Assembly (NCBI GenBank): GCA_016186485.1 | Contig: JACPLN010000007.1 | Coordinates: 33,603-97,602 of the forward strand | Length of the DNA stretch: 64,000 nucleotides | Source of the DNA: Candidatus Nealsonbacteria bacterium | GTDB lineage: Bacteria > Patescibacteriota > Minisyncoccia > Minisyncoccales > UBA6532 | Direction: 5' to 3' | Shown: in pieces, positions 8,886-58,288 of the stretch | Numbering within the stretch: the stretch's first letter is position 1 | How the letters are laid out: each line of letters starts with the position of its first letter | Position numbers and translations under genes: made by a program | Notes under the pieces: model-generated | The model's database searches: none | Seen by the model: the letters and a program-made list of their open reading frames with translations, nothing else | Told to the model about the DNA's origin: nothing

Positions 8886-8905
8886 GGATTATGGGGTTTA
8901 TTAAG

Positions 8906-9733: not shown

Positions 9734-9749
9734 TTTATATATTTTACTT

Positions 9750-13334: not shown

Positions 13335-13362
13335 TCGTAAAAAAAGAAGAGCTATAAGCCCT

Positions 13363-13647: not shown

Positions 13648-13672
13648 TCTTTTCGTTCGCCTCTGTGAGAGA

Positions 13673-18065: not shown

Positions 18066-18069
18066 ATGT

Positions 18070-20424: not shown

Positions 20425-20428
20425 CTTT

Positions 20429-24355: not shown

Positions 24356-24383
24356 TAGACAAAAAGGGCAATTTTTGTATAAT
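24356..24383 (+). promoter_or_regulatory. Putative promoter of the roughly 20-kb uxs-to-methyltransferase operon
   Basis: TAGACA, 16-nt spacer, TATAAT (24378-24383), in the 85-bp divergent gap. Confidence 0.45.
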
Positions 24384-24421: not shown

Positions 24422-25369
24422 ATGCCAAAGCAAAAAACCATTTTAGTCACCGGGGGAGCCGGATTCATCGGATCTCACCTTTGCAAAAAGCTTCTGGAAT
24501 TAGGCAATAAAGTTATTTGTATTGATAACTTTTTTACCGGCAGCAGGGAAAACATTAAGGATTTTTTGAAAAATCCCAATTTTTCTTTGATAGAGCATGA
24601 TGTAACCGAACCTATTTTTGTTGCCTCTCTAGACCAAATTTATCATTTGGCATGCCCTGCTTCTCCCGTCCACTACCAGTTAAATCCCATTGAGACGGTA
24701 AGAACCAATGTCATCGGCACTGCCAATATGCTGGATTTGGCAAAAAGAGCCGGCGCGAGAATTCTTCAGGCTTCAACCTCCGAGGTTTACGGAAATCCTT
24801 TAGAGCACCCCCAAAACGAGAGTTATTGGGGAAATGTCAACCCAATAGGAATTAGGTCCTGTTACGATGAAGGAAAAAGGGTTGCTGAAACATTATTCTT
24901 GGATTATCACCGCAAAGGCGGAGTTGATATCAGGGTTGTCAGGATATTTAACACTTACGGCCCGAACATGCACAAGAACGACGGCAGGGTGGTATCAAAC
25001 TTTATTGTTCAGGCCCTGAAAGGCGAACCGTTGACCATATATGGTTCCGGAATTCACAGCAGGTCATTCCAATACGTTGACGACCTGATAGAGGGAATGG
25101 TTAAAATGATGGGCAATGAAAACGGTTTTATCGGTCCGGTCAATTTGGGTAATCCCGGTGAATTTACCATAAGGGAATTGGCAGAAACGGTGATAAGATT
25201 GATTCCCGAAAGCAAAAGCAAAATTACTTACCGCAAGCTGCCAGACGACGATCCGGAGCGCAGGCGCCCGGACATTAGTTTGGCAAAAACGAAATTAGGC
25301 TGGGAGCCAAAAGTTCCCCTTGATGAAGGCCTTAAAAAAACAATAGAATATTTTAGGAGAATTGTTTAA
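24422..25369 (+). CDS. uxs: UDP-glucuronate decarboxylase (UDP-xylose synthase)
   Basis: [73 protein letters not shown]. An alternative ATG lies at 24398. Confidence 0.85.
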
Positions 25370-26454
25370 TGGGGATAAAAAACAACAAATATTTAGTTTT
25401 GGCGCTGATTTTTGCCCTTTTTAACGCAGGGGCAATTTTCTTTATTTTTGGGGCCCAGAAATACGGCGATAGCCAGGATTATATAGAAGTTATCAATTGG
25501 TTCAGAGGAGAGCCGTCGCAGATTACCCCATGGAGATTGCTAAGGCCGCTGGGGCCTTTGATGGCTGCACCGTTTGAATTTTTAGGAAAGGGATCCGGTT
25601 TGGTTTTAGAAAACATAATTTTTTATCTGCTTTCGGCCATTCTGATATTTAAAATAACGGAATTAATTTATGGTTTTCGCCGGCAAGCCCTTTTCGCATC
25701 CATTTTTTTTGTTACGGCCACTCCCGTGATTGAATTTGGCCTGTCTTATTTAGTTGATATGGGGGGCTGGTTCTTTTATTTGCTTTCCATCTATTTAACC
25801 CTGCTTTATTTTAAGAACAAAAACGAAAGATTAATTGCAATAAACGGGCTTCTTTCCGGCATCGGGGTTTTTATGAAGGAGACGGCTGGCTTAGGAGTCA
25901 TATTTTTTGGATTAATGGTTTTGTTTTCGGGCAGCCTTAATATCAAAGAAAAAATATTCAAGATAGCGCGTTTCGGAGCATTTTTCTTAGTTCCTTTTGC
26001 CCTCATCCAGGTTTTGATATTCAGGTATTTTCATATAACTTTTTTAGACTGGTATTTAATGGGGACTAGCCGTTTTGGGGAAGGATTGCTTCTGGTGTTT
26101 TTGAGGTATCTGGGCCAGCTTTTTAGGGTCTTGGGAGCGCTTTGGCCGCTTGTTTTAATCGGGATATGGCAGGAATTACGAGAGAAAAACCTAGAAAGGA
26201 TAAAAATATTTCTGGCTCTAATTCCTTCTTCGTTTTCTTTTCTGCTTTGGACTTTTGGGGGAGGAGGGCGAGTAGCCTTTATTTTTGCCCCCCTGGGCAT
26301 TGTTTTGGCCAGCTACGGATTATATGGGCAGAAAAATAAATTAGGGATTGCGTTGTTTTTATCGGCAATGATAATTTTGAATTATTACTTTTCCTTTATT
26401 AATCCGAAAGTTGCTTTTGTAGATGAAATCGCAAAGCTTCTTGGATTATTATAA
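25369..26454 (+). CDS. Polytopic membrane protein (about 10 TM), distant relative of the 30749 and 37584 products; putative GT-C-like
   Basis: Hydrophobic throughout. Early loop LLRPLGPL resembles the RPLY(S/P)F of the two paralogs. TAATG overlap with uxs. Confidence 0.4.
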   Translation: MGIKNNKYLVLALIFALFNAGAIFFIFGAQKYGDSQDYIEVINWFRGEPSQITPWRLLRPLGPLMAAPFEFLGKGSGLVLENIIFYLLSAILIFKITELIYGFRRQALFASIFFVTATPVIEFGLSYLVDMGGWFFYLLSIYLTLLYFKNKNERLIAINGLLSGIGVFMKETAGLGVIFFGLMVLFSGSLNIKEKIFKIARFGAFFLVPFALIQVLIFRYFHITFLDWYLMGTSRFGEGLLLVFLRYLGQLFRVLGALWPLVLIGIWQELREKNLERIKIFLALIPSSFSFLLWTFGGGGRVAFIFAPLGIVLASYGLYGQKNKLGIALFLSAMIILNYYFSFINPKVAFVDEIAKLLGLL

Positions 26455-26479
26455 TTATAATATACTAAAAATATAATAT

Positions 26480-27181
26480 ATGAAACTTTCTGTCGTAATT
26501 CCGGTTTATAACGAGAAAAATACTATTTTGGAATGCCTTAATAAGGTTGAAGACGTTGACCTGGGAGCAATTGAAAAAGAAATTATTATCATTGACGACG
26601 GTTCTACAGACGGCACCAGAGAAATTTTAAAGACCATAGAAAGCAAATACAGGGTGATTTATCACGAAAAGAACCAAGGGAAGGGAATGGCAATCAGAAA
26701 CGGCTTTGGAGCGGCAAAGGGCGACGTTATTTTAATCCAGGACGCAGACTTGGAATATAACCCTTTAAATTACCCCATGCTGATCAAACCAATCTTAGAG
26801 GATCGGGCCGACGTGGTCTACGGATCCAGATTTTTAAACAAAGACTTTCGGCATATTTCTTTGTCTTTTTATCTTGGAAACAAGTTTTTAACTATTTTTT
26901 CCAACTTATTGACGGGACTTAACTTAACCGACATGGAAACCTGCTATAAGGTTTTCAGCAAGAAGGCGCTAGACGAAATTCTGCCCCATCTTACTGCCAA
27001 GCGTTTTGAGATTGAACCGGAGTTGACTGCCCGGATTTCGCAAAAAAGGCACAGATTTTTAGAGGTGGGGCTTTCTTTTATCGGGCGGTCCCGCACCCAT
27101 AAAGAGGGGAAGAAAATAAACTGGAAAGACGGTTTGGCTGCCATGCGGTATATGATAAAATTCAATTTGTTTAGCAGATGA
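26480..27181 (+). CDS. GT2 glycosyltransferase, polyprenyl-phosphate-sugar synthase-like (Dpm1/ArnC/GtrB type)
   Basis: LSVVIPVYNEKNTI, IIIDDGSTDGT, IQDADLEYNP. Confidence 0.8.
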   Translation: MKLSVVIPVYNEKNTILECLNKVEDVDLGAIEKEIIIIDDGSTDGTREILKTIESKYRVIYHEKNQGKGMAIRNGFGAAKGDVILIQDADLEYNPLNYPMLIKPILEDRADVVYGSRFLNKDFRHISLSFYLGNKFLTIFSNLLTGLNLTDMETCYKVFSKKALDEILPHLTAKRFEIEPELTARISQKRHRFLEVGLSFIGRSRTHKEGKKINWKDGLAAMRYMIKFNLFSR

Positions 27182-28107
27182 CGAGCAACTTTTGGAAAAA
27201 TAAAAAGATTTTAGTTACCGGAGCCCAGGGATTCCTGGGAAAGCATTTGGTAAAGAATCTTTTAGAGAATCGCCGGGTTCTTAAAGAAAACCTCTTTTTG
27301 CCCGCAATTGAAGAGCTTGATTTAAGAAGATGGGAAGATTGCAAGTCTGCAGTTGAAAATAAAGATATGGTTATTCACTTGGCCGCAGTTACCGGCAACG
27401 CTGAATTTCATCGGGTAAATCAGGGCAAAACATTTTACGATAATCTTATAATGGGCGTCCAGCTTATGGAGGCAGCAAGGCAGGCCGGAATTAAAAAGTT
27501 CGTATCAATAGGAAGCGTCACCGAGTATCCCAAAAAAGCCCCTTTTCCTTTTAGGGAGGATGGATTGTGGGAGGGCTACCCGGAAGAAATTCACGCGCCA
27601 TACAGTTTCGCTAAAATGATGTTATTGGTTCAAGGAAAAGCCTATCGCCAGCAATATAATTTTAATGCAATCCATTTGTTACTTACCAATATGTTCGGGC
27701 CCGGAACGAGCATGGGTAACGCCGTTATTCCTTCTGTCATAAAAAAAATTAAAGAAGCAAAGGAAGCTAAAAGAGAATTTATTGAGCTTTGGGGAACCGG
27801 AAGGCCGACCAGAGATTTTTTATACGTTGAAGACGCGGTTGAAGGAATTCTGCTTGCCGCAGAAAAGTATGATAAGTCAGAACCGGTAAATATAGGATCC
27901 GGGAAGGAATTATCCATAAAAAGTTTGGCAGATATTATTTGCCGTTTGATGAGCTTTAGCGGCAAAGTCGTTTGGGATGCCTCAAAACCAGACGGCCAGC
28001 CGAGATGGTTAATGGATACAAGCCTTGCCAAAAAAGAATTCGGGTTTGAGGCAAAAACCGCCATTGAAGAAGGCCTGATTAAAACAATTAATTATGAGCA
28101 GCAGTAA
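27178..28107 (+). CDS. GDP-L-fucose-synthase paralog lacking the epimerase acid/base residues (probable plain NDP-4-keto-6-deoxyhexose reductase)
   Basis: About 60% identical by eye to the 34730 product. Keeps YSFAK (YxxxK), but GSVTEYP replaces GTVCAYP/GSSCIYP, and SMGNAVIPS replaces the KSHVIS/NSHVIP segment with a 3-aa deletion. Confidence 0.6.
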   Translation: MTSNFWKNKKILVTGAQGFLGKHLVKNLLENRRVLKENLFLPAIEELDLRRWEDCKSAVENKDMVIHLAAVTGNAEFHRVNQGKTFYDNLIMGVQLMEAARQAGIKKFVSIGSVTEYPKKAPFPFREDGLWEGYPEEIHAPYSFAKMMLLVQGKAYRQQYNFNAIHLLLTNMFGPGTSMGNAVIPSVIKKIKEAKEAKREFIELWGTGRPTRDFLYVEDAVEGILLAAEKYDKSEPVNIGSGKELSIKSLADIICRLMSFSGKVVWDASKPDGQPRWLMDTSLAKKEFGFEAKTAIEEGLIKTINYEQQ

Positions 28108-29344
28108 AAACACAAAGGTTATAACCGCTTGCCGTTCTTGCTTTTCAAAACAGCTTATCCCTATTTTTTCATTGGGGAAATTATGCATTTCAAACTTTAT
28201 AGATCTGCCAAGGGCGAGAGAAATAAAAATGCCCCTGGAATTGGTTCTTTGCAAGAGTTGCTGGCTGCTGCAGCTGAAACATACCATATCTCAAGAACAA
28301 TTATACCGCAATTATTGGTACAGATCCGGCGTTAACAAAACAATGAGAGAAGAGCTTGCCGGCATTTCTTCAAGAGCGCCCAAATTGGTTGACCTTAATA
28401 GGGGAGATTTTGTTTTGGACATAGGAAGCAACGACAGCACGCTGCTGCTTTCTTATAAAAGAAAAGGATTAAGGCTTGTTGGATTTGAGCCGGCCAGAAA
28501 CTTAATGTCTCTTGCCAGAGCCAAAGGCGCGGACATTATCAATGATTTTTTTAACTACGAGGCTTGGAGGAAAAAATTCGGTAAAGCAAAGGCTAAAATT
28601 ATTACGGCAATCGCAATGTTTTATGACTTGGATAATCCAAATAAGTTTGTTGCGGACGCCAGAAAATGCCTTGATGAAAAAGGCGTATTTATAATTCAAA
28701 TGAGTTATTTGCCATCAATGCTTCAGCAAAATGATTTTTCCAACATTTGCCATGAGCATTTAGAATATTATTCTTTGACCTCTCTAAAAAATCTTTTATA
28801 TAGGCACGGTCTTGAGGTTTTTGACGCAGAGCTTAATGACATTAATGGAGGAAGTTTCCGCATTTATATTCAGCATAAAGGATGCAGGCCGATAAGTAAC
28901 CGCGTTAGAAAATTAGAAGAATTTGAAAAGGGACTTGGCCTTTCCAGCAAAAAACCATACAAGGAATTTATTTCCAGGATTCTTGCAGAAAGAGAAAGGC
29001 TGAATAGCTTTATTAAAAGCGAAGCTGAAAGAGGAAAGGATGTTTATGTTTACGGCGCTTCAACCAAGGGCAACACAATTCTGCAGTTTTGCAATTTAAA
29101 ATATCCTTTGATTAAAGCTGCGGCAGACAGGAATCCCATGAAATGGGGCAAAAAAACAGTCGCTACCCTAATCCCAATTATTTCCGAAGAGCAGGCCCGC
29201 AAAGAGCGCCCTGATTATTTCTTGGTTTTGCCCTGGCATTTCCTTAAAGAGTTTATTACCAGGGAAAAAAAATATCTTGAGTCGGGGGGAAAATTTATTA
29301 TACCCTTGCCAAATTTCAAAATTATTAGCCGGGAAGATTTATGA
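28094..29344 (+). CDS. NDP-hexose C-methyltransferase (TylCIII-like) with N-terminal Zn-ribbon
   Basis: CRSC...CKSC ribbon followed by WYRSG, SAM motif VLDIGSNDSTLL, and the C-terminal domain typical of sugar C-methyltransferases (VYVYGASTKGNT...ADRNP.K.GK). Confidence 0.65.
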   Translation: MSSSKNTKVITACRSCFSKQLIPIFSLGKLCISNFIDLPRAREIKMPLELVLCKSCWLLQLKHTISQEQLYRNYWYRSGVNKTMREELAGISSRAPKLVDLNRGDFVLDIGSNDSTLLLSYKRKGLRLVGFEPARNLMSLARAKGADIINDFFNYEAWRKKFGKAKAKIITAIAMFYDLDNPNKFVADARKCLDEKGVFIIQMSYLPSMLQQNDFSNICHEHLEYYSLTSLKNLLYRHGLEVFDAELNDINGGSFRIYIQHKGCRPISNRVRKLEEFEKGLGLSSKKPYKEFISRILAERERLNSFIKSEAERGKDVYVYGASTKGNTILQFCNLKYPLIKAAADRNPMKWGKKTVATLIPIISEEQARKERPDYFLVLPWHFLKEFITREKKYLESGGKFIIPLPNFKIISREDL

Positions 29345-30747
29345 AAGACGTCATTATTATTCCGACTTACAACGAAAGGGAGAATATTAAGAATCTTTTG
29401 GGAACGATTTCTTCGCTTTTTCCGAACGTTCATATTTTGGTTGTTGACGACAATTCGCCCGACCAGACCGCAAACGAGGTTAAAGAGGCCCAAAAGCAAA
29501 TTCCCAATTTAGAACTATTGTTAAGGCCCAAAAAGGAAGGTTTGGGAAGAGCTTACATTTCAGCCTTCCAAAAAGTTTTGGCCTCGGGACAGGTCAGCTC
29601 TTTGTGCACCATGGATGCCGATTTTTCCCACAGCGCCAGATATTTAAAAAATATGTTTTCCGGAATAAGAGAATTTGACGTTGTTGTAGGTTCAAGGTAC
29701 CTGAAGGAGGGGGGAGTCAGCGGATATAAGTTTTTTCGGAGAATGGTAAGTTTGGCGGCAAGCCTTTATTGCAGGATAATGTTCCGTTTGCCCATAGCCG
29801 ACTACACCAGCGGATTTATGTGCATTAGGGCCCCTTTGCTCAGGAAGATTGATTTTAGAAAAATTGACTCTTCGGGATTCGCCTTTTTAATAGAGCTGAA
29901 ATATCTTTTGTGGGAGAGGGGAGCTAAGTTTAAGGAGTTTCCAATAATTCTTGAAAACCGAAGGGAGGGAAAATCGAAAATAGGAACCCCGGTCGTTTTG
30001 GAGGGGATTCTTCTTCCCTGGAAGTTAATCATTAAAAGCTTTTCCAGGAAATTTAAGAGTCTTTCGGGGGTAATTAAAGAAGCCTTGATAAAAAGGGGGA
30101 TATTTTTCATTATTTATCACGGGCCCAGGGTTTTATACCGAAGCTGCATTAAGAAAAGTAAAGATTTCTTCGTTTTTCAGAATAAAAGGTATCAATACCT
30201 TTATCGTTTATACAATTGCACCTGCCTTAATGAAAGGTCTGTTGAGATTCCTCTTGCCCTAAAAGCGTTTGAGGAATACAAGGGAAAGAGAATTCTTGAA
30301 GTTGGCAACGTCCTTTCCCATTATTTCCCCTTTCAGCATGATGTTATAGACAAATACGAAAAGTTTGACGGCGTAATCAATCAAGATGTCGTTGATTTCC
30401 AGCCATTAGAGAAATACGACCTTATTGTGAGCGTTTCAACGCTGGAACACGTAGGGTTTGACGAAGAACCGAAAGACCCTCGGAAGATTTTATTCGCGTT
30501 AGAAAACCTAAAAAGGATTTTGGCCAGGAGGGGTAAAATATTCATTACTTTGTGCCTGGGGTATAACTTAGAAATGGACAAGCTTTTAGAAAAAGGCGCC
30601 ATTAAATTCAGCAAACAATACTTTTTAAAGAGAGTATCAAATGATAATAAATGGAAAGAGGTGAGTCAGGAGGAAGTTAAAGGAATAGGGTACGATCACG
30701 CCGGCTGGACGGCTAGGGGTTTGGTTATCGGCATTATAGAAAATTAA
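29341..30747 (+). CDS. Fusion protein: GT2 polyprenyl-phosphate-sugar synthase-like domain plus C-terminal methyltransferase-like domain
   Basis: N-terminal VIIIPTYNERENI, VVDDNSPDQT, MDADFSH (Dpm1-like). C-terminal RILEVGNVLSHYF ... YDLIVSVSTLEHVGFDE (class I methyltransferase-like). Confidence 0.7.
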   Translation: MKDVIIIPTYNERENIKNLLGTISSLFPNVHILVVDDNSPDQTANEVKEAQKQIPNLELLLRPKKEGLGRAYISAFQKVLASGQVSSLCTMDADFSHSARYLKNMFSGIREFDVVVGSRYLKEGGVSGYKFFRRMVSLAASLYCRIMFRLPIADYTSGFMCIRAPLLRKIDFRKIDSSGFAFLIELKYLLWERGAKFKEFPIILENRREGKSKIGTPVVLEGILLPWKLIIKSFSRKFKSLSGVIKEALIKRGIFFIIYHGPRVLYRSCIKKSKDFFVFQNKRYQYLYRLYNCTCLNERSVEIPLALKAFEEYKGKRILEVGNVLSHYFPFQHDVIDKYEKFDGVINQDVVDFQPLEKYDLIVSVSTLEHVGFDEEPKDPRKILFALENLKRILARRGKIFITLCLGYNLEMDKLLEKGAIKFSKQYFLKRVSNDNKWKEVSQEEVKGIGYDHAGWTARGLVIGIIEN

Positions 30748-30748
30748 A

Positions 30749-31987
30749 ATGAAAAATCTAATTCAAAATAATCGGTTTTTAACGCTTGTCTTGATATCCC
30801 TTTTGTTTTTCCAGCTGATTTACAGCTTTTTATTTCCGGCCGCGGGTTTTAACGATAATTGGCTGCCCGTCGCCGATTATCTTCCAAAGTTTAGGGTTGA
30901 GAGTTCCGACAGCTTTCTTTTAGAAAAAGTTTACCCCTTGATTCCTAGGGGTTATCGTCTGAATAGCGACGTGGGCCATTACCTGGAGCTTGCAAAAGAT
31001 TTTACCCCGGAATATTTTAAGAACCACGTTCTTCTTTCGCGTCCTCTCTATTCGTTTTTAGTTTTTTCTGTTTCTCTGCCCGGCCGTTTTTTCGTAGCGC
31101 CTTCTTACGGAATCATCTTCGGGCTGGCAATCCTGGTTAATTTTATCCTAATGACCTTTGCGGTTCTGCTGTTTTTCGGGCTTTTAAAGAAGATATTTTC
31201 TTTGAAGACGGCATTTTTGTCTTCGGTTTTGCTCATTTTTTCTCCTTTCAGCCACGCTTCCATTTTGCAGCCGAGGGCCGAGATTCTGACTGTTTTTAGC
31301 GTAGTTGCGAGCGCCTATCTTCTTTACAATTACGCCAAAAAACCTTCAACCTTTAAACTCGCAGTTTTCTCTTTGGTCATCGGAGTTTTTATGCTGGCAA
31401 AAATGTTTTTTGCCTTGCCTCTTTTCATCATCCTTTTAGCGGTTTACTTAAGGCGCTATAAAGAGGGGTTTGCCTTTTTTGTAATCCACTTGATTCCATT
31501 TTTTCTCTGGTATCTTTTTGTAACCCAGGTCTGGAGAATTCCTTTTTACATCCACGAAATCCAATATTATGGAGAAGAGATGTGGATATTTAAGATATTT
31601 CAGCTGCCATGGCAGCAAACATACAAATTATTGTTGGAGTCCCTGCCCAATTTTATTAAGGGCCTGATTTACAGTTTTCTTTTGATTCCTGTTATTTTCT
31701 CTGTAATTGGCCTCCGGCGTTTAAGGGTTTCTTTGGGAAATATTCTTTATTTGGGCCCGATTTTCTCGGTTTTTCTTCTTTCTCTCTTTACGAATACCTA
31801 TTATCCCCGCATCATATTTTTGTTGTTCCCCATTATTTATCCCACCTGCGTTTTAGGGATAGACAGGGCAGCTAATTTCTTTAAAAACTACCAATCCTGG
31901 CTTTACCCAATTTTTTATGTCGCCGCCGTCGGATTCATAATAGTTATTTCAAACATTAATATTTATCAGATCTTTTACTACCTGTGA
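30749..31987 (+). CDS. Polytopic membrane protein, paralog A of an uncharacterised GT-C-like family
   Basis: Aligns along its whole length with the 37584 product (SRPLYSFLVF / NRPLYPFFIF, LLIFSPFSHA / LFIFSPFVHT, YLRRYKEG / YFRRYKEG). Confidence 0.5.
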   Translation: MKNLIQNNRFLTLVLISLLFFQLIYSFLFPAAGFNDNWLPVADYLPKFRVESSDSFLLEKVYPLIPRGYRLNSDVGHYLELAKDFTPEYFKNHVLLSRPLYSFLVFSVSLPGRFFVAPSYGIIFGLAILVNFILMTFAVLLFFGLLKKIFSLKTAFLSSVLLIFSPFSHASILQPRAEILTVFSVVASAYLLYNYAKKPSTFKLAVFSLVIGVFMLAKMFFALPLFIILLAVYLRRYKEGFAFFVIHLIPFFLWYLFVTQVWRIPFYIHEIQYYGEEMWIFKIFQLPWQQTYKLLLESLPNFIKGLIYSFLLIPVIFSVIGLRRLRVSLGNILYLGPIFSVFLLSLFTNTYYPRIIFLLFPIIYPTCVLGIDRAANFFKNYQSWLYPIFYVAAVGFIIVISNINIYQIFYYL

Positions 31988-33666: not shown

Positions 33667-33670
33667 CTAT

Positions 33671-35683: not shown

Positions 35684-35695
35684 AACAAAAATAAA

Positions 35696-36349: not shown

Positions 36350-36350
36350 C

Positions 36351-37196
36351 ATGACTTTAGCTGTTTTTTTGGATAATCTCTTTTCTTTTTTAACCGAAAA
36401 CCGCTTATCAAGAATGTTTTTAAGGTTTTTGCAGGGCCTGGTGAGGTTTCCCAAAGACGTTGGAATTAGGATTGAAAACAATGTTTTCTATGCCAGAACT
36501 CTTGATAGGGTCGTTGCCTTGTATCTAAGGAAGTTTTTTTTCTCCAAGTCCTTTGAGGCAAATCTTTTTAGGTCGGTTTTAAGGCAGGGAATGCGGGTTA
36601 TTGATGTCGGGGCAAATTTCGGGTATTACACCGTTGTTTCAGCGGATTTTATTGGCAGGGAGGGCAGGGTGTTTGCTTTTGAACCGGATCCAGGAAACTT
36701 CTCTTTGCTTTTGAAGAATATAGATGTTAATGGATGCGAAAATGTTGAAGCTTTAAATTTAGCGATTTCAGATAAACCTGGCAAAACCACGCTTTTTTTG
36801 TCAAAAGAACATCATGGCGACCACAGGATTTATGACAACCACGAGGGTAGAAAGGCAATAAACGTTGAAGCTACAGCCCTGGACATTTTTTTTGATAAAA
36901 ATCCAAAAGCGGATATAATAAAAGTAGACGTTCAGGGGGCCGAGGCCAAAGTTTTTAGCGGCATGAAAATGCTGATAGAGAAAAATCCCCAAGTTCTTGT
37001 TTTCACCGAATTTTGGCCAAAGGGGTTAAGGCAAGCCGGGGTTTCCCCAAAAGACTTTTTGAACCAAATACAGGATTTGGGCTTTTCAATAAGCATTATT
37101 GACGAAGCGGCAAAATCCCTGAAAACCTCTACGATTGACGGCGTTCTTAAAGCAAGCGAGAAAGCCCCATATCTTAATTTATTTTTAAAGAAGTAA
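36351..37196 (+). CDS. FkbM-family methyltransferase
   Basis: VIDVGANFGYYTV, VFAFEPDPGNFSLLLKNI, IIKVDVQGAE. Track ORF 36195 is a 5' extension overlapping the previous gene; the ATG at 36351 follows its stop by 1 nt. Confidence 0.8.
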   Translation: MTLAVFLDNLFSFLTENRLSRMFLRFLQGLVRFPKDVGIRIENNVFYARTLDRVVALYLRKFFFSKSFEANLFRSVLRQGMRVIDVGANFGYYTVVSADFIGREGRVFAFEPDPGNFSLLLKNIDVNGCENVEALNLAISDKPGKTTLFLSKEHHGDHRIYDNHEGRKAINVEATALDIFFDKNPKADIIKVDVQGAEAKVFSGMKMLIEKNPQVLVFTEFWPKGLRQAGVSPKDFLNQIQDLGFSISIIDEAAKSLKTSTIDGVLKASEKAPYLNLFLKK

Positions 37197-37204
37197 TACC
37201 AAAA

Positions 37205-37582
37205 ATGCCTCTTAGGTTTTTATTAATATTTCTTTCCGTTTTGGTTACGGTTACTGCCCAGCTTTTTATCAAAATGGGAGTTGTATCGCTGGGAAAGTTT
37301 TCTATTTCCTTTGGCAGTCTTCCGGACTTGATTTTAAGGGTGTTGCAGAATATTTGGATAATGGGTGGCCTAATTCTGTTTGGATTAAGTTTTGCATTGT
37401 GGATTTTAATATTGTCCAGACTCCAGTTGAATGTTATTTATCCCGTAATAGTAAGCCTTAATTTTTCCCTGATAGCGATAGTCTCCTGGTTCTTATTCAA
37501 AGAATATCTGTCTTTGGTCCAGGTTTTAGGAATCATCATTATCATTTTTGGCGTATTTTTGGTTTTACCAAAGGGAGTATAG
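37205..37582 (+). CDS. Small 4-TM SMR/EamA-like membrane protein (ArnE/ArnF-like polyprenyl-P-sugar flippase candidate)
   Basis: 125 aa with four hydrophobic segments. Lies between a GT2/methyltransferase pair and GT-C-like membrane proteins. Confidence 0.55.
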   Translation: MPLRFLLIFLSVLVTVTAQLFIKMGVVSLGKFSISFGSLPDLILRVLQNIWIMGGLILFGLSFALWILILSRLQLNVIYPVIVSLNFSLIAIVSWFLFKEYLSLVQVLGIIIIIFGVFLVLPKGV

Positions 37583-37583
37583 T

Positions 37584-38849
37584 ATGAAAAAGAGATTTTA
37601 TATCCCTCTTTTAATCTCCTTTTCTCTTTTGCAATTTGTTTCCGGTCTTTTTTATCCGGTTTCGCTCTCCAACCCGGATTGGTATCCTTTAACGTCTTAT
37701 CTGCAGAATGAAAAAATCATTTTGCCTTTTTCATCCGACTACCGTTTCCTTGAAGACGGCTGGGGATACCTGGAATCAGCCAGGAATTTTCCGGAAGAGC
37801 TTGGAAAACGCTTTACCGTTAATCGTCCGCTCTATCCGTTTTTTATTTTCCTTGCTTCCCTGCCTTTCTCTTTTTTTGGCTCTCCGTCACCCGGTCTGAT
37901 TTTTAGCCTGGCTATAGCGATTAATCTTGTTTTGTTGTGCCTCGCGTCTATTTTGTTTTATTCCCTTCTAAAGAACCTGTTTTCTTCAAGGGTGGCGCTG
38001 CTTTCTTCTTTCCTTTTTATTTTTTCTCCTTTTGTCCATACTCTTTTAGTTCAGCCATTAGCCGAAATCTTAATGGCTTTTTTAGCAGTGATTTTTGCCT
38101 GTTTTATTTATGATTATTTCAAGAAACCCTCTCTTTTAAAATTGATAACTTATTCTTTGATAGTCGGAATTCTTTTATTGGGCAAGGTTTTTTTTGCCTT
38201 TTCTCTTTTTGTTGTTTTCTTAGCCCTTTATTTCAGGCGCTATAAAGAAGGAGCTATTTTTACCATTGTTCATTTGATCCCTTTAGCGCTTTGGTATTTA
38301 TTGGTTACGCGGATTTGGCAAATTCCTTACCAGACAGCCGAAGTAGGGCATTGGGGAATGGGTGTTTGGATTCTTGAAATACTCAGTTCGCCGCGGCTTG
38401 AAACAGCCAAAGCCTTTTTGAGGTCCGTCCCTTATTTCCTAACCGCTTTATTTTATGGTTTCTTCATTATCCCTGTTGTTTTTTCTTTTTTTGGCCTTCA
38501 AAGATTTCCATTTAGATCAAGAAAAATAATTTATTTTTGTTCAATTGTTTCGGTTTTCATTCTCGGTTTTGTAGCGAATGTCTATGCCTATCGCCATGCC
38601 TTTTTGGTTTTCCCGGTTATTTACCCTGCCGCGGTCTTAGGAATGGAAAGGGCAGGAGCTTTTTTTGGCAAAGATAAAAAATGGCTGCGGTCTTTGTTTT
38701 TGGCGGTTATAATCGGTGTTTTGGTTTTCGCTTCAAACATCAATTTCTCAAAGATTTTCGGATTTAACTATTACGGCCTGGTTCATTGGACCCAGTGGCC
38801 ATTGCCGGGTTTTTTGGAAAATATCTTTAAATCGTTAAACGGCTATTAA
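37584..38849 (+). CDS. Polytopic membrane protein, paralog B of the uncharacterised GT-C-like family
   Basis: AAGGGAG RBS. Full-length similarity to the 30749 product (see that entry). Confidence 0.5.
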   Translation: MKKRFYIPLLISFSLLQFVSGLFYPVSLSNPDWYPLTSYLQNEKIILPFSSDYRFLEDGWGYLESARNFPEELGKRFTVNRPLYPFFIFLASLPFSFFGSPSPGLIFSLAIAINLVLLCLASILFYSLLKNLFSSRVALLSSFLFIFSPFVHTLLVQPLAEILMAFLAVIFACFIYDYFKKPSLLKLITYSLIVGILLLGKVFFAFSLFVVFLALYFRRYKEGAIFTIVHLIPLALWYLLVTRIWQIPYQTAEVGHWGMGVWILEILSSPRLETAKAFLRSVPYFLTALFYGFFIIPVVFSFFGLQRFPFRSRKIIYFCSIVSVFILGFVANVYAYRHAFLVFPVIYPAAVLGMERAGAFFGKDKKWLRSLFLAVIIGVLVFASNINFSKIFGFNYYGLVHWTQWPLPGFLENIFKSLNGY

Positions 38850-38859
38850 TTTTACAAAT

Positions 38860-40584
38860 ATGACAAGGGCCTTGGAGATTATAAAAAACCATAAAGCAGC
38901 TTTTATCTTAGCCGTTTTGACCGGCATTATCGTAGCTTCCCCCCAGATTTATTTTCCTTATGAAAATAGAGAAACCTACAAAGGAATTTTCTATACCTGC
39001 ACCGATAACGAGTCTTTTTATTTCAGCAGAGTCCGGGAGGTAAAAGATGGCTATCCTGGGTTGGGCAGCGCGATTTTCCAGGACGGGAAAGAAGATCCCT
39101 ATTTGCAGTCCCCGTTTGGAGAGATTTTAACAGGATTCTTGGGGAAGATTTTATTTTTAGGGATAAACAATACTATTTTATTAGCCAGGTTTCTTTTTCC
39201 TTTTTTGGTCTTTTTGCTGCTATACGGTTTTGTTTTCTCTTTTACAAAAAGGAGGTTATTCGCCCTATCTGCTTCCTCGGCCCTTCTTCTTGGCAACAGC
39301 CTTTTTACCCGTCATGTTATCCCGACTTTATTGCGGGGAGAAGCTTTGGGCACCACCTTTTTGGACTTTTTTCGTCCGGTTCAGCCCCAGACAAATCTTC
39401 TTTTTTTCTTCGCTTTCCTTTTCTTTTTCTGGCTGTTTTTTGAAAAAAAGCAGTGGCGGTGGGGAGGCGTTAGCGCCTTGATATTTGGCCTTTCTTTTTA
39501 CGTTTACCCCTATACCTGGACTTTTCTTTCCGCTTTTTTGGGGGTTTTGATAATCATCCTTTTCTTCAAAAGGAGGCTTCGGGACGCAAAGAAAATAGCT
39601 CTTATGGCTTTGACCGGAATAATTATCGCCATTCCATATTTTTTAAACTTATACCGGGCTCTTTTGCACCCCTATTTCACAGACGCCACGAGGAGGTTTG
39701 GCATAATTGAGGGCCGCCCGCTGATTATTGGATTTTTGCTGCCCGCGCTTTTCATTATTTTTTTGCTATTCTTTCCGAAAAAATGGAAAGAACAATTTGT
39801 CTTTTCTTTAGCCCTGCTTTTATCCCCGTTTTTGGTTTTGAACCAGCAGCTGATAACCGGTAAGACCATGGCTACCGGCCACTATCATTGGTTTATCAGC
39901 CGCCCAATAGCCCTTGTTTTTTTGATAATTATTCTTTTCTATCAGGCAGGGCGCATAAATGCAAAAATACCGAAAATATTAGCGGTTTTTATAATCGGAA
40001 TGAGTATTTATGCCGGCATAAACATTCAGGCCGCTTCCTATGAGGAATGCAAAGATCAAATTCTAAGCGAGCAAAGATATGCTCCAATTATCCAATGGTT
40101 AGATAAAAACGCCAATAAGGGGGAAGTAGTTCTTGCAGATTCCGACCCTTCAAACTTTATTTCCATATACACACCATTAAATCTTTTTTACGCTTCTCCT
40201 GCCCATTATTATCTTTCGGCCCCAGATGAAAGGGTGCTTGAAAGCATATTTTTATTTTATAGGCTGGAGGGGCTGGCGGGGAGAGAAGCTAAAGAATTTT
40301 TCCTGCAAGATAAAGAGAGAGAGTATATTTCAAGAAGCGTTTACAATGAATATTATAAGGAAAAGCTGGGCGATACGGCAGCCATTCCCGATGAGGTTAT
40401 CATTTCTTTCGCTGAAAAATATAAGAAGTTTTTGCTGGTTCCATTAGAAAAAATCCTTAAAAGGTACAAAGTAAATTATGTGGTTTGGGATAAGAAAAAA
40501 CACCCTTTTTGGCAACTGGACCAATACCAATTCTTAAAGCCAGCTTACGAGATTGAAGACTTCAAAATTTATATCATTAAATGA
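38860..40584 (+). CDS. Large polytopic membrane protein with soluble C-terminal domain (GT-C-like)
   Basis: N-terminal TM then acidic loop CTDNESFYFSRVREV. At least 10 TM, then a roughly 170-aa hydrophilic tail. Confidence 0.45.
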   Translation: MTRALEIIKNHKAAFILAVLTGIIVASPQIYFPYENRETYKGIFYTCTDNESFYFSRVREVKDGYPGLGSAIFQDGKEDPYLQSPFGEILTGFLGKILFLGINNTILLARFLFPFLVFLLLYGFVFSFTKRRLFALSASSALLLGNSLFTRHVIPTLLRGEALGTTFLDFFRPVQPQTNLLFFFAFLFFFWLFFEKKQWRWGGVSALIFGLSFYVYPYTWTFLSAFLGVLIIILFFKRRLRDAKKIALMALTGIIIAIPYFLNLYRALLHPYFTDATRRFGIIEGRPLIIGFLLPALFIIFLLFFPKKWKEQFVFSLALLLSPFLVLNQQLITGKTMATGHYHWFISRPIALVFLIIILFYQAGRINAKIPKILAVFIIGMSIYAGINIQAASYEECKDQILSEQRYAPIIQWLDKNANKGEVVLADSDPSNFISIYTPLNLFYASPAHYYLSAPDERVLESIFLFYRLEGLAGREAKEFFLQDKEREYISRSVYNEYYKEKLGDTAAIPDEVIISFAEKYKKFLLVPLEKILKRYKVNYVVWDKKKHPFWQLDQYQFLKPAYEIEDFKIYIIK

Positions 40585-41669
40585 AGAAAATTTTAATTAT
40601 TACCAATAATTTAGAGGGGAGGGATGGATGGAGCAGGGTGTCTTTGGATTTTAGCGAAGAACTTAAAAGACAGGGGAACGAAATTTTATACCTGACCTCA
40701 AAGGAAATAGGGGAACCCTCAAAATATTTTTCTAACCCTCTTTCCCCCTTTTTTGCAGCAAAGATAATAGAAAAAGCAGTTTCTGGGTTTTCTCCCGACG
40801 TAATTCATTTTATGGTAGAGCCCTATGCCCTTTGCCTGCCATTTTTAAAAACAGGTGGAGCAAAAGTTTTCTTAACCGTCCACGGAACCTATTCTGTCAT
40901 CCCGGCCCTTTTCGGTTTTTCTTTTAGAAAAGCTATTCTAAGCTATCTTTCAAAAAAATATCTCAATAGGCTTGATGGCATTGTTGCCGTAAGCAATTAC
41001 ACTAAAAATCATCTCTTAAAATATTATCCGGATTTAAGGGATAAGGTTAGGGTGATAACCAACGGGATAGACCTTAAAAAGCACAAACCAATTGATTACG
41101 ACCAGAAACAAAAAAATCAAATCAAAAAAGTGCTTTTTGTCGGAGAGGTTAAAAAAAGGAAGGGGATCCTGGAGGCAATGGAAGCCCTTAATTATTACAG
41201 AAAGGAATTTTCAGACAATTTTATTTATGATATAGTGGGCAAGGCAAGGGAAGAGGATGAATACCGCAAAGATATTTTAAGAAAGGCAAAGGAGTATGGT
41301 TTGGAAAATAAGGTGTTTTTCCGGGGCGAGGCGTCGGATGAATCGCTGGAAGATTATTATCTAAGGTCAGATCTGCTGCTAATGACCTCTTTAAACACCG
41401 GCAATTATTTTGAGGGGTTTGGACTGGTATTTTTGGAAGCGGCTGCCAAGGGAACTCCTGGCATAGGATCCAGGGATTCGGGGTGCCAGGAAGCTATTTT
41501 AGACGGTAAAACCGGATATTTAGCGGAGTGGAGAGATCCGAAAGACATCGCAGAGAAAATGGATTTAATTTTAAATAAAAACGCAATTCAGCCAAAAATC
41601 TGCGTTGAATGGGCGAAACAAAACGATATTAGCATAAAAGCAAAAGAACTTATTAATTTATATGAATGA
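40581..41669 (+). CDS. Glycosyltransferase, GT4 family
   Basis: FVGEVKKRKG; FEGFGLVFLEAAAKGTPGIGSRDSGCQEAILDGKTGYL. Confidence 0.85.
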   Translation: MKKILIITNNLEGRDGWSRVSLDFSEELKRQGNEILYLTSKEIGEPSKYFSNPLSPFFAAKIIEKAVSGFSPDVIHFMVEPYALCLPFLKTGGAKVFLTVHGTYSVIPALFGFSFRKAILSYLSKKYLNRLDGIVAVSNYTKNHLLKYYPDLRDKVRVITNGIDLKKHKPIDYDQKQKNQIKKVLFVGEVKKRKGILEAMEALNYYRKEFSDNFIYDIVGKAREEDEYRKDILRKAKEYGLENKVFFRGEASDESLEDYYLRSDLLLMTSLNTGNYFEGFGLVFLEAAAKGTPGIGSRDSGCQEAILDGKTGYLAEWRDPKDIAEKMDLILNKNAIQPKICVEWAKQNDISIKAKELINLYE

Positions 41670-42504
41670 AGAAAAAAAGCCGCAAAGGCAGGAAGAAATC
41701 AAAGAATTTTATCGGCATTTTGGAGACGATATTTCAGATAAGAGGCTTGATTCTCCCTATCCTTTAAGGAAATTCTGCCACAGGATGCGCTATCTGAATC
41801 ATTTAAGCCATATTAAGGCTTCGGATAAGATTCTGGAACTGGGATGCGGAGAAGGAATTTTCACCGTTCTGGCGGCGAAAAAGGGGGCAAGAGTTGTAGC
41901 CACGGATATTTCCAGGCCTAACCTGGAAAAATCTCGGATGCTGGCGCAGAAAGAAAGCGTTTTAGACAGGATAGAATTTATGGAAGCAGACATTGAAAAC
42001 CTGCCATTCAAAGATAACTCTTTTGATTTGGTGGTAGCTTCCCATGTTTTGGAGCATATTCCCAATTTTGAGAAAGGTTTGTCTGAGATTTATAGAGTAA
42101 CTAAAGACAAGGCCCTAATCGCTCTTCCTACTTGTTTAGGCCCTTGCGCCTGGCCCATTTTGGGCAAAAGCTGGTCTGGATATTGGAAGTTTAGCAGGGG
42201 CTCTTTTCCCGCTTTGCTAAGGGGATTTTTTAAAGTTATACTCGGAATCTTGGAGGGAAAAGACGGCATTGAAGAAGGCGGGTACGGAGGGAAAGAGGGC
42301 ATTCCCCACAAATACTATTATCCCTGGGCAATAAAGAAGAAAGTAAAAAAAGCCGGTTTCAAAATCATTCTTTATGAACCCGATTCTCTTTGCCTGCCCT
42401 ACTTGAGTTTTCTAATACCGGTCCTTAGCTTTCTAAACTCTTTTAGGGGAAACCCAATATTTCGCTATTCCGGCCAGTGGAGCCATATGCTTTTGCAAAA
42501 GTAA
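41662..42504 (+). CDS. Class I SAM-dependent methyltransferase
   Basis: ILELGCGEGIF, VVATDIS, FDLVVASHVLEHI. Confidence 0.8.
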   Translation: MNEEKKPQRQEEIKEFYRHFGDDISDKRLDSPYPLRKFCHRMRYLNHLSHIKASDKILELGCGEGIFTVLAAKKGARVVATDISRPNLEKSRMLAQKESVLDRIEFMEADIENLPFKDNSFDLVVASHVLEHIPNFEKGLSEIYRVTKDKALIALPTCLGPCAWPILGKSWSGYWKFSRGSFPALLRGFFKVILGILEGKDGIEEGGYGGKEGIPHKYYYPWAIKKKVKKAGFKIILYEPDSLCLPYLSFLIPVLSFLNSFRGNPIFRYSGQWSHMLLQK

Positions 42505-42505
42505 A

Positions 42506-43486
42506 ATGAAAATCAGTTTTTTAATTCACCATTTGGAAGTAAAAGGAGGAAGCCGAAGAATTATTGAGCTTTCCAACCATCTTATTAACAGAGGGCATGG
42601 GGTTGTCATTTTTTGCGGAGATGGTTCTCCCGTTGATTGGATGAAATGCGAAGCCGAGATTAAGCCCGAAAGAGAGGTTTTGAGTTTTACTCACGAGGTT
42701 CTTGTTTTAGCCAACCGGAATCGTTACCCTTTGTTTAAAAAGGCAAGGGCCTTGTTGAAGGTTTTTTATGTTCTGCTTTTGAATGAAAACGAGAAAAAGT
42801 ACCTTCTGGGCTTTCACCCGACTTTAATCTTGCCGACAAAAAAGTATGCCAAATGGCTTAGGGAAATTTTCAGCGACAAAAAGATTTTAGCGCTTTCAAA
42901 TTCCACCGGCTTAAAGGATGAGCTGGAAAGCTACGGAGTTAATTCGCTTTTGCTTTTGGGCGGTATAAATCGGGAAATGTTTTATCCTATAGACAGACCG
43001 AAAGTCTTTCAGTGGAAGATTTTAACTACCGGAGACCCAGAATGGTGGAAGGGCAAGGATATTGTTGAAAGGGCAGTATCTATTGCGAGGAACATTCAGC
43101 CAGAAATTAGCATTGATACTTATTATGGAAAGGGTATTTCCCAAGAGAAAATGGCGGAGGTTTACAATTCTGCCGATATTTTTGTTGATGCCCAATTGTA
43201 CGGCGGCTGGAATAACCCGGTTGCAGAAGCCATGGCCTGCAGGGTTCCGGTTGTCTGCGCAGATGGCACAAGCGTTAAAGATTTGGCTTTCAATGAAAAG
43301 ACCGCCCTCGTAGTTCCTTCAAAAGACCCCAAAGCTCTGGCAGAGGCGATTCTAAGATTGGGAAAAGACGAAGGGCTAAGGCAGAGATTAATAGACGCCG
43401 CTTTCAATAACGTTATTCAATTCACTTGGGAGAAAAGCGCAGAAAATTTAGAAAAGATTATTAAAGACCGCTTAAATAAATTATGA
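42506..43486 (+). CDS. Glycosyltransferase, GT-B fold (GT4-like)
   Basis: IFVDAQLYGGWNNPVAEAMACRVPVVCADGTSVKDLAFNEKTALVV. Confidence 0.75.
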   Translation: MKISFLIHHLEVKGGSRRIIELSNHLINRGHGVVIFCGDGSPVDWMKCEAEIKPEREVLSFTHEVLVLANRNRYPLFKKARALLKVFYVLLLNENEKKYLLGFHPTLILPTKKYAKWLREIFSDKKILALSNSTGLKDELESYGVNSLLLLGGINREMFYPIDRPKVFQWKILTTGDPEWWKGKDIVERAVSIARNIQPEISIDTYYGKGISQEKMAEVYNSADIFVDAQLYGGWNNPVAEAMACRVPVVCADGTSVKDLAFNEKTALVVPSKDPKALAEAILRLGKDEGLRQRLIDAAFNNVIQFTWEKSAENLEKIIKDRLNKL

Positions 43487-44034
43487 AAACCTATTTATAC
43501 AGATTATGGCGTAAAATACTTAGACTTCTTATAGCGATTCGGGGCGATAGATATGGATTGATGCGTTGGGATGTCTTAATAAAGATTATCCAAGATAATC
43601 ATTACACGAAAATTGCTGAAATCGGCGTTGATAAAGGAGAAACCACCAAACATATTCTTAAAAATTGTAAACTAGATTCTTACTATTTAATTGACCCCAT
43701 CTTTTCAGATTCAGCCAGAAAAATAATCAGAAAACCAGCCGTATTTTTGCAGATGAAATCTGAAGAAGCGGTAAAACAGTTTTTAGATGAATCACTTGAT
43801 TTGGTATTTATAGATGCAGACCATTCCTACGAAGAGGTGAAAAAAGATATAGAGTTTTGGCTTCCTAAAATTCGTAAGGGGGGGGTCTTAACAGGACATG
43901 ATTACGATTACCCAAGACATCCTGACGTCAAAAAAGCGGTTGATGAAGTGCTGGGTAGGGTTGATACGGTCATAATAGAATACAAAAGAGGAACAAATAG
44001 GCACAATAACCTTTTTTACTACAAAAAGAGTTAG
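43483..44034 (+). CDS. Class I SAM-dependent methyltransferase (Methyltransf_24-like)
   Basis: IAEIGVDKGETT, DLVFIDADHSYEEVKKDIEFWLPKIRKGGVLTGHDY. Confidence 0.65.
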   Translation: MKTYLYRLWRKILRLLIAIRGDRYGLMRWDVLIKIIQDNHYTKIAEIGVDKGETTKHILKNCKLDSYYLIDPIFSDSARKIIRKPAVFLQMKSEEAVKQFLDESLDLVFIDADHSYEEVKKDIEFWLPKIRKGGVLTGHDYDYPRHPDVKKAVDEVLGRVDTVIIEYKRGTNRHNNLFYYKKS

Positions 44035-58287: not shown

Positions 58288-58288
58288 A

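Follow-up and report, generated by a model that had tools for sequence, protein, structure and literature searches.

The DNA analysed here is a 64-kb stretch of Candidatus Nealsonbacteria, a member of the candidate phyla radiation (CPR, or Patescibacteria), which we refer to as the window. It contains an array of 19 plus-strand open reading frames (ORFs), numbered g1 to g19 and extending from 24398/24422 to 44034, with 24398 as an alternative start of g1. The array combines nucleotide-sugar enzymes and methyltransferases with three family 2 glycosyltransferases (GT2), one small multidrug resistance (SMR)-family protein and five polytopic membrane proteins, a gene set suggestive of a system in which sugars are loaded on polyprenyl phosphate, flipped and transferred outside the membrane.

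Once gene starts are refined, the 18 junctions between these genes span -14 to +25 nt, with ATGA, GTGA or TAATG overlaps at several of them. Strand switches mark both ends: a divergent minus-strand aspartate/ornithine carbamoyltransferase gene (23389-24336) on the 5′ side and a convergent minus-strand gene (44031-45443) on the 3′ side, which overlaps the final stop codon, that of g19, at 44031. This convergent ORF encodes a 470-aa soluble protein with no Pfam match at E 0.1, and its own stop overlaps the g19 stop. The start of g12 is at 36351, not within a TTG-extended ORF, and that of g14 is most likely at 37584. A scan for terminator-like hairpins found 26 against 27.9 +/- 5.5 expected from shuffles, a lack of enrichment that makes the scan uninformative; the intergenic gaps in the operon are, however, all too short for a terminator. 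The gene layout predicts a single transcription unit and confirms that the operon-like architecture is real. The original prediction, made from the sequence alone, had described a packed 19-gene operon in which no internal terminator could be seen; the short junctions and strand-switch boundaries bear out the first point, and the lack of any gap long enough to hold a terminator the second. Profile and structure-sequence searches likewise verified each gene class that it had named (UXS, Gmd, Fcl and its paralog, C-methyltransferase, GT2s, methyltransferases, SMR and membrane proteins), as follows.

24356..24383, plus strand: promoter-like site TAGACA-16-TATAAT upstream of g1; 11/12 consensus, the top plus-strand match in the scanned region and a consensus match only.
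24422..25369, plus strand: g1, UDP-glucuronate decarboxylase (UXS; product UDP-xylose); human UXS1 matched full length (E 1e-124, 419 bits); SDR/GDP_Man_Dehyd Pfam families.
25369..26454, plus strand: g2, 361-aa GT-C glycosyltransferase (PMT_2; PF13231 35.1 bits, gathering score 26.1) with ~8 transmembrane (TM) segments.
26480..27181, plus strand: g3 (GT2a), 233 aa, candidate Dpm1/ArnC-like polyprenyl-phosphate glycosyltransferase; Glycos_transf_2 129 bits.
27178..28107, plus strand: g4, Fcl paralog without the epimerase acid/base residues; Fcl model 203 bits, 61% identity to g10.
28094..29344, plus strand: g5, nucleoside diphosphate (NDP)-4-keto-6-deoxyhexose 3-C-methyltransferase of TcaB9/mycarose type; Methyltransf_13, _23, _14 architecture.
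29341..30747, plus strand: g6 (GT2b), Dpm1-like GT2 domain (1-226) plus a class I methyltransferase-like C-terminal domain (weak Methyltransf_12/23 at 321-405).
30749..31987, plus strand: g7, 412-aa GT-C glycosyltransferase of a small Patescibacteria family, assigned by AlphaFold2 (AF2) and Foldseek.
31984..33666, plus strand: g8, 560-aa GT-C (PMT_2; PF13231 40.7 bits, gathering score 26.1) with a C-terminal soluble domain.
33671..34729, plus strand: g9, GDP-mannose 4,6-dehydratase (Gmd); TIGR01472 527 bits, above the equivalog cut-off of 415; GDP_Man_Dehyd 469 bits.
34730..35683, plus strand: g10, GDP-L-fucose synthase-type 3,5-epimerase/4-reductase; solved GDP-L-fucose synthases matched full length at 3e-57.
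35696..36349, plus strand: g11 (GT2c), 217 aa, candidate Dpm1/AglJ-like polyprenyl-phosphate glycosyltransferase; AglJ 143 bits, dolichol-phosphate (Dol-P) hexose transferase 82 bits.
36351..37196, plus strand: g12, FkbM-family methyltransferase; PF05050 74 bits, TIGR01444 107 bits (cut-off 37.7).
37205..37582, plus strand: g13, 125-aa SMR-family protein with 4 TM segments, candidate lipid-linked-sugar flippase; Multi_Drug_Res PF00893 24.4 bits (gathering score 23.7).
37584..38849, plus strand: g14, 421-aa GT-C, paralog of g7 (42% identity over 404 aa, E 7e-103).
38860..40584, plus strand: g15, 574-aa GT-C of a family without a Pfam model, with a C-terminal soluble domain (~420-574); AF2 and Foldseek.
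40581..41669, plus strand: g16, GT4 (GT-B) glycosyltransferase; Glycos_transf_1 and Glyco_transf_4.
41662..42504, plus strand: g17, class I S-adenosylmethionine (SAM)-dependent methyltransferase; Methyltransf_11 94 bits.
42506..43486, plus strand: g18, GT4 glycosyltransferase; Glycos_transf_1 63 bits.
43483..44034, plus strand: g19, Methyltransf_24 family methyltransferase; PF13578 69.6 bits.

We conclude that all five membrane proteins are predicted GT-C glycosyltransferases, two through PMT_2 matches, two through AF2 models searched with Foldseek and one through paralogy. The AF2 model of g7, built from 70 homologues, has a predicted local distance difference test score (pLDDT) of 89, and its top 32 Foldseek matches in the PDB are all GT-C-type, 31 of them at probability 1.0; they include STT3, ALG9, ArnT, AglB, PglB, Pmt4, Emb and AftA. 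The g15 model (pLDDT 95) matched PglB, AftA, STT3, DPY19 and ArnT at probability 1.0, with E down to 1.4e-6. No g15 homologue carries a Pfam domain or a name, and PMT_2 matches are weak for g7 and g15 and absent for g14. For g2 and g8, the assignment comes from Pfam PMT_2 alone: single-sequence searches with both against solved structures gave no match, and the g8-family profile retrieved Pmt1 alone, at E 0.95.

The fold comparison also bears on whether the operon could be an ordinary polysaccharide locus of the Wzx/Wzy- or ABC-dependent kind, with polymerases, ligases or transporters as its membrane proteins and glycan-elongating GT2s. Such a locus would be in keeping with Gmd, Fcl, GT2, GT4 and methyltransferase genes, which together look like an O-antigen or capsule locus, but it is largely refuted by the Foldseek probabilities for g7 and g15 (1.0 for GT-C, <0.2 for the major facilitator superfamily and other transporters), by the scores of g2 and g8 above the PMT_2 gathering threshold and by the closeness of the GT2s to dolichol-phosphate mannose synthase (DPMS) and ArnC. 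No Wzy_C, Polysacc_synt or ABC domains were found, and we regard this explanation as very improbable. Wzy, ligase and transporter identities, which the original prediction had set as the alternatives for these proteins, were rejected on the same GT-C probabilities and the lack of such Pfam domains.

The five proteins are related only weakly across the families g2, g7/g14, g8 and g15 (profile-profile probability 45-66%), and we treat these as probably separate families of one fold. The g7 family, which includes g14, comprises 34 representatives at E<=1e-30 among 1.84 billion; D74, R98 and P99 are invariant in its alignment, D74 being the single invariant Asp, and profile comparison aligns the D..Y..RPL loop of g2 with the invariant D74/R98-P99. 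One 47%-identical g7 homologue (P0091) is assigned in NCBI to a Nanoarchaeota (DPANN) metagenome-assembled genome, which could reflect CPR-DPANN gene sharing or a binning error. The g8 family is rarer, with ~10 close homologues, and its D36-E37, located just after TM1, is invariant across 13 sequences. In the g15 family, E60 and K77 are invariant and D63 nearly so. Of the two acidic loop motifs previously proposed as GT-C hallmarks, DDESY in g8 stands, with D36/E37 invariant, whereas DNESFY in g15 needs correction, the conserved acids being E60 and D63 and not those quoted. The C-terminal soluble domain of g15 holds a further nearly invariant pair, W543-D544 (residues ~540-551), which bears a loose likeness to the oligosaccharyltransferase motif WWDxG but is distinct from it.

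None of the five appears to belong to GT39 or GT83. NCBI labels g7 and g8 as 'glycosyltransferase family 39 protein', yet searches of these two and the other membrane proteins found no PF02366, MIR or PF16192 (PMT_4TMC) domain at E<=0.01, so that g2, g7, g8, g14 and g15 do not look like protein O-mannosyltransferases (PMTs) of GT39. The GT39 loop-1 Asp-Glu motif occurs in g8 only; the g7 family has its one invariant Asp. Membership in the ArnT family GT83 is equally not indicated, as no protein matched the NCBIfam ArnT model and the modelled folds resemble ArnT at fold level only, ranking it under STT3 and PglB.

The three GT2 proteins share the same top solved relative, the Pyrococcus furiosus (Pf) enzyme DPMS (5mlz), a GDP-sugar user, with E values of 1.4e-18 for g3, 1.2e-27 for residues 1-226 of g6 (second-best solved match 1e-4) and 1.5e-18 for residues 1-203 of g11. 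Among solved structures, ArnC ranks second for g11 and among the next matches for g3 (5e-13) and g6. Their NCBIfam matches are AglJ, Dol-P hexose transferase, PpgS, ArnC and PgfS, the last for g3 and g11; g3 matched AglJ, PgfS, ArnC and PpgS-like models. No TM segments were predicted in g3, g11 or the N-terminal 226 residues of g6. We place all three in the polyprenyl-phosphate glycosyltransferase clade (Dpm1/GtrB/ArnC), which would imply a lipid acceptor; DPMS and ArnC as solved relatives bear out their earlier description as Dpm1/ArnC/GtrB-like.

g13, the sole SMR protein in the window, scores above the PF00893 gathering threshold, and its top NCBIfam match is ArnF (47.5 bits), in line with the single 4-TM SMR/ArnE-like protein expected here. 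It is a small multi-TM, SMR/ArnF-like flippase candidate.

The sugar-nucleotide genes point to deoxy- and C-methyl-sugar pathways. g10 keeps the catalytic Cys (GTVCAYP) and His (KSHV) of the Fcl/GMER 3,5-epimerisation acid/base pair (C109/H179 in E. coli); its Fcl model score is 282 bits, under the NCBIfam equivalog cut-off of 500. At the same positions g4 has Thr for Cys and Ala for His, lacks the epimerisation feature and is probably a 4-ketoreductase only. Because g4 has lost the epimerase Cys and His while g10 retains both, it fits a reductase acting on a 3-C-methylated 4-keto intermediate. The enzyme that would supply such an intermediate is g5, in which PF08421, PF13489 and PF08484 (Zn-binding N-domain, SAM domain and C-methyltransferase C-terminal domain) all score above the gathering threshold. 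Compared with solved structures, g5 matched the D-mycarose 3-C-methyltransferase 4rv9 over its full length at 5e-66 and TcaB9 and KijD1 at ~1e-42, which makes it a predicted NDP-hexose 3-C-methyltransferase of TcaB9/TylC3/MtfC type and bears out the sugar C-methyltransferase named earlier.

To place the operon in a wider context, we collected 39 related loci (L002-L040) from GTDB genomes, metagenomes and assemblies, and annotated those >=5 kb with the proteins of the window. The GT2-(SMR)-GT-C trio recurs in ~20 independent Patescibacteria loci. Among 22 non-redundant g7/g14-type GT-C genes, a Dpm1-like GT2 gene on the same strand lies within 1.5 kb of 16, an SMR gene accompanies 11, and a nucleotide-sugar-modifying gene is found within 4.5 kb of 21. 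Co-occurrence of the trio, put forward earlier as a check, is therefore seen for the GT2 in 16/22 and for the SMR in 11/22.

Moreover, each GT2 subtype keeps its own company. The g11-type follows an Fcl-type gene in the window, L002, L005, L006, L007, L009 and L028, and in L012 it is preceded by a Gmd-like 601-aa ORF. The g6-type always lies directly after a g5-type 3-C-methyltransferase (window, L004, L010, L022, L024, L026, L029). The g3-type adjoins a g2-type GT-C in L004, L010, L011, L017, L022 and L032; otherwise it comes after an NDP-glucose 4,6-dehydratase-like gene and a reductase and before a g7-type GT-C, with an SMR gene in between in L008, L014 and L025 (also L013). L002 carries, at 510-5961, Gmd, a ColD-like pyridoxamine phosphate-dependent 3-dehydratase, a ColC/Fcl-like reductase, a g11-type GT2, SMR and GT-C. 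Its DegT-like protein matched ColD (2gms) at 6e-54 versus 1e-28 for perosamine synthase, and the latter identity was rejected on this comparison with solved structures. By Pfam, L040 has the same DegT-SDR-GT2-SMR-GT-C order at 1891-6280, and these colitose-type cassettes possibly imply a lipid-linked 3,6-dideoxyhexose. Deoxysugars are suggested as GT2 substrates because four alternative deoxyhexose pathways join the same GT2-SMR-GT-C core. This pairing of GT2 subtype and pathway is the strongest argument for deoxysugar donors, yet it remains guilt by association.

The larger GT-Cs have neighbours of their own. In L040, the g8 homologue lies one gene (radical SAM) downstream of a g7-type GT-C. 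A g15-GT4-methyltransferase block is conserved in the window, L003 and L006; g15-type GT-Cs elsewhere (L002 8132-11716, L003 7348-11719, L040 10886-13781) are preceded by a ~320-aa PF10111-type GT2 together with a second protein, either LPG_synthase_TM (PF03706) or GtrA-like (70 aa), these two being alternative flippase candidates. No such partners accompany g15 in the window. Scattered among the GT-C, GT2 and SMR genes of L002 11713-18727, L003 13739-15118 and L040 6284-19474 are several B12-binding radical SAM genes of class B methylase-like type. Set beside the SAM-dependent methyltransferases of the window, they suggest an alternative methylation of the same glycans.

The observations made here concern the genes present, their folds and families, the architecture of the operon and its conserved synteny; from them we infer a lipid acceptor for the GT2s, the identity of the donors, the flipping step and the final acceptor as follows. 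g9 would produce GDP-4-keto-6-deoxymannose, which g10 would convert into GDP-L-fucose or a close 6-deoxyhexose and g5 with g4 into a GDP-3-C-methyl-6-deoxyhexose; g1 would provide UDP-xylose. Each of the three peripheral Dpm1-like GT2s may load one sugar onto polyprenyl phosphate, the partner of g11 being Fcl, that of g6 the C-methyltransferase and those of g3 UXS and g2. The SMR protein g13 would flip the lipid-linked monosaccharides, and the five GT-Cs (g2, g7/g14, g8, g15) would transfer the sugars outside the membrane to a surface acceptor; wall glycopolymers, glycolipids and Ser/Thr-rich surface proteins are all conceivable in this role. Methyl groups may be added at some stage by the C-terminal domain of g6, g12, g17 and g19. 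On this scheme, module M1 would comprise g1 (UXS), g2 and g3 and handle xylose or another sugar; M2 would comprise g4, g5, g6, g7 and possibly g8, with GDP-3-C-methyl-6-deoxyhexose; and M3 would comprise g9-g14 and possibly g15, with a fucose-type, perhaps O-methylated, sugar. All three modules would share one SMR.

The general mechanism of loading on polyprenyl phosphate, flipping and transfer outside we consider highly likely; it formed the core of the original prediction, and the GT-C folds and the co-occurrence of the genes support it. For deoxysugars as the lipid-linked donors, suggested by the gene neighbourhoods, our view tips only slightly to the affirmative. The one-to-one pairing of GT2 subtypes with deoxysugar pathways strengthens the earlier proposal of deoxyhexose donors, but the first module adjoins UXS, where a pentose (xylose) is possible. 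The description of the operon as repeated modules holds loosely, with three GT2 and five GT-C genes but only one SMR. Taken as a whole, a multi-module version of three-component extracytoplasmic glycosylation with deoxy- and C-methyl sugars is the reading we find probable.

Several findings weigh against this reading. Two GT4s in the operon and seven in the rest of the window could use GDP- or UDP-sugars in the cytoplasm, and every match of the GT2s to a named equivalog model falls under the curated cut-off. There is a single SMR for three GT2 genes, and it scores 47.5 bits against an ArnF cut-off of 99. Neither g8 nor g15 has a GT2 of its own in the window; g15 elsewhere pairs with the ~320-aa GT2 and the PF03706 or GtrA-like protein. 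Finally, oligosaccharyltransferases rank among the best fold matches of g15, and en bloc transfer is therefore conceivable.

The GT4 genes and the missed cut-offs, which leave GT2 specificity unfixed, would also suit an account in which the three-component mechanism is right but the lipid donors are ordinary (Man, Glc, GlcNAc, Gal) and cytoplasmic GT4/Leloir enzymes put the deoxy- and C-methyl sugars into a separate glycan. The Dpm1 relatives characterised so far, users of Man, Glc, GlcNAc, GalNAc, 4-deoxy-4-formamido-L-arabinose (Ara4FN) or GalA, count in its favour. However, the GT2 subtype pairs one-to-one with the upstream deoxysugar gene in many genomes, often in a module with no GT4, and several related loci consist of a compact cassette of sugar pathway, GT2, SMR and GT-C alone. 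We consider ordinary donors rather unlikely.

The fold matches of g15, best to PglB, AftA and STT3, raise a further alternative, namely that some GT-Cs, notably g15 and g8, are oligosaccharyltransferase- or polymerase-like and, instead of adding single sugars, act on lipid-linked oligosaccharides that the GT4s and GT2s assemble, either extending them or transferring them, for instance to Thr-rich proteins. The conserved g15-GT4-methyltransferase block and the closeness of two genes for Thr-rich surface proteins to the rest of this 64-kb glycan island would be consistent with this. Against it, the window contains no initiating phosphoglycosyltransferase, Wzx or ABC exporter, g15 has a conserved WD only and no WWDxG-type motif, and elsewhere g15 directly follows a GT2 and a small membrane protein, as in the mono-sugar trio. 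We judge oligosaccharide transfer improbable and retain monosaccharide donors as the preferred reading.

The entire 64 kb is a glycan-biosynthesis island. Outside the operon, it carries the seven further GT4 genes together with short-chain dehydrogenases/reductases (SDRs), aminotransferases, an AsnB-like amidotransferase, nucleotidyltransferases and a carbamoyltransferase; Wzx, Wzy, WaaL, ABC permease, WecA and WbaP domains were found nowhere in the 64-kb window, and a tRNA scan detected no tRNA or tmRNA genes in it. Its polytopic membrane ORFs are the five GT-Cs, the SMR protein and one unassigned 293-aa protein (60698-61579, minus strand), which has ~6 TM segments and no Pfam match at E 0.1.

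Potential acceptors are encoded at 2-2326 and 2501-4765 (plus strand) by two Thr/Ser/Ala/Gly-rich proteins with 13-15% Thr and no Pfam match, the first continuing past the window start. In the second, an N-terminal signal/TM segment and a Pro-rich PAVE-type linker are combined with a C-terminus that, by eye, resembles a peptidoglycan-binding domain. Both are plausible wall-anchored surface or S-layer-like proteins. As glycosylation acceptors, a role suggested for them earlier, they are only candidates, located ~20 kb from the operon with proximity as the sole link, and we are doubtful that the transferred sugars have a protein acceptor.

A second long co-directional array occupies 8891-23406 (plus strand), broken by a minus-strand DegT gene (13673-14791). 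It encodes five GT4s, two SDRs, a polysaccharide deacetylase, a FemAB/GNAT-like protein, an NTP-transferase, a methyltransferase and an AsnB-type amidotransferase, and no initiating phosphoglycosyltransferase or exporter was found in it. Its first ORF (8891-9733), of the UDP-glucose/GDP-mannose dehydrogenase family, is short (~280-290 aa), has no match to the C-terminal UDP-binding domain and is preceded at ~8700-8830 by a ~65-nt tandem duplication seen as a repeated translated string. The shortness of this dehydrogenase matters because UXS (g1) needs UDP-glucuronate. In addition, a nonulosonic-acid (pseudaminic/legionaminic-type) set is located at 56177-63730 (plus strand), with a CMP-sugar cytidylyltransferase at 47887-48657 (minus strand). 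Besides NeuB, which carries a SAF domain, the set has a PseB-like Polysacc_synt_2 dehydratase, a DegT aminotransferase, GNATs and a DUF218+GNAT fusion, as well as a HisF-like protein and a 385-aa protein whose PP-loop matches are faint.

CPR bacteria are host-attached and almost uncharacterised biochemically, and the operon, if read correctly, would give a first mechanistic handle on how they build their cell surface. An evenly poised conjecture is that Patescibacteria use polyprenyl-phosphate-linked deoxyhexose donors made by GDP-sugar-dependent Dpm1-like GT2s and used by unclassified GT-C families (g7/g14, g15), in swappable, surface-diversifying cassettes. Candidate lipid-linked sugars would then be an L-fucose-type sugar, a 3-C-methyl-6-deoxyhexose, a colitose-type 3,6-dideoxyhexose and an NDP-glucose-derived 6-deoxyhexose. 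The shared GT2-SMR-GT-C core combined with alternative sugar pathways suggests a route to surface-glycan diversification, which could matter for host recognition and phage evasion. Known lipid-monophosphate donors of GT-C enzymes are Man, Glc, Gal, GlcNAc/GalNAc, GalA, 4-amino-4-deoxy-L-arabinose (Ara4N) and pentofuranoses (PMC11127046, PMC8035078; in part established knowledge). If true, a class of deoxyhexose and C-methyl-deoxyhexose donors would extend this chemistry and define new GT-C families with testable substrates. Heterologous reconstitution appears realistic, the GT2s being small and soluble or peripheral and the GT-Cs compact. The open-access literature that we searched for polyprenyl-phosphate-fucose or -rhamnose donors, CPR GT-C systems and Nealsonbacteria glycosyltransferases yielded nothing relevant, which is weak evidence. 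Dol-P-rhamnose of Haloferax was considered as a precedent and rejected, rhamnose there being added to a Dol-P that already bears a trisaccharide (Kaminski et al. 2013).

Among characterised systems, ArnC/ArnE-ArnF/ArnT with ArnA/ArnB resembles the operon in combining tailoring enzymes, a GT2, an SMR flippase and a GT-C; ArnF is the top NCBIfam match of g13, ArnC is among the top solved relatives of the GT2s and ArnT is among the fold matches. Unlike ArnC, however, the GT2s of the operon lack TM helices; a single SMR gene replaces the ArnE-ArnF heterodimer pair; the GT-Cs match only the broad PMT_2 family and are not ArnT orthologues; and Gmd, Fcl and a C-methyltransferase stand in place of the ArnA/ArnB pathway. 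Moreover, three GT2 and five GT-C genes share one operon, in a monoderm-like CPR host without lipid A.

A second comparison is offered by Dpm1, Pf DPMS or Ppm1 with PMT (GT39), and by archaeal AglD/AglJ-AglR-AglS. Pf DPMS is closest to g3, g6 and g11, AglJ and Dol-P hexose transferase are the best NCBIfam matches of g11, and the invariant loop-1 Asp-Glu of g8 is typical of PMTs. Human DPM1 and the Ppm1 catalytic domain are TM-less, as are the GT2s of the operon. In contrast to Dpm1/PMT systems, the GDP-sugars made beside these GT2s are 4,6-dehydratase products and not mannose.

The same three-part logic underlies GtrA/GtrB/GtrC, CsbB-GtcA-YfhO, GacI/J/K/L and streptococcal GtrB-PgtC2/Pgf. Unlike the operon, these use UDP-Glc, UDP-GlcNAc or UDP-GalNAc as donors, together with GtrA/GtcA or Wzx-like flippases and GT-Cs of the YfhO and GtrC types, with one module per locus. 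The streptococcal systems glycosylate Ser/Thr-rich extracytoplasmic protein regions, a parallel to the acceptor idea raised above (PMC8035078, PMC12041528). Precedent for unusual sugars comes from pentofuranose three-component systems (GT136; Kelly et al. 2024, PMC11127046). In these and in the mycobacterial decaprenyl-phosphate-arabinose (DPA)-Emb-Aft system, as here, tailoring diversifies the lipid donor and the GT-Cs have additional extracytoplasmic domains; the fold matches of the operon's GT-Cs include AftA and Emb. Their donors, though, derive from phosphoribosyl pyrophosphate through a UbiA-like synthase and not from a GT2 and a nucleotide sugar; their flippases are MATE proteins, or SMR in mycobacteria; and their sugars are pentofuranoses, not deoxyhexoses. 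Set against all these systems, the type of machinery is known, and what sets the operon apart is the combination of deoxy- and C-methyl-sugar pathways with several modules in a single operon, GT-C families that are new, TM-less GT2s of the GDP-sugar type and a host from the CPR.

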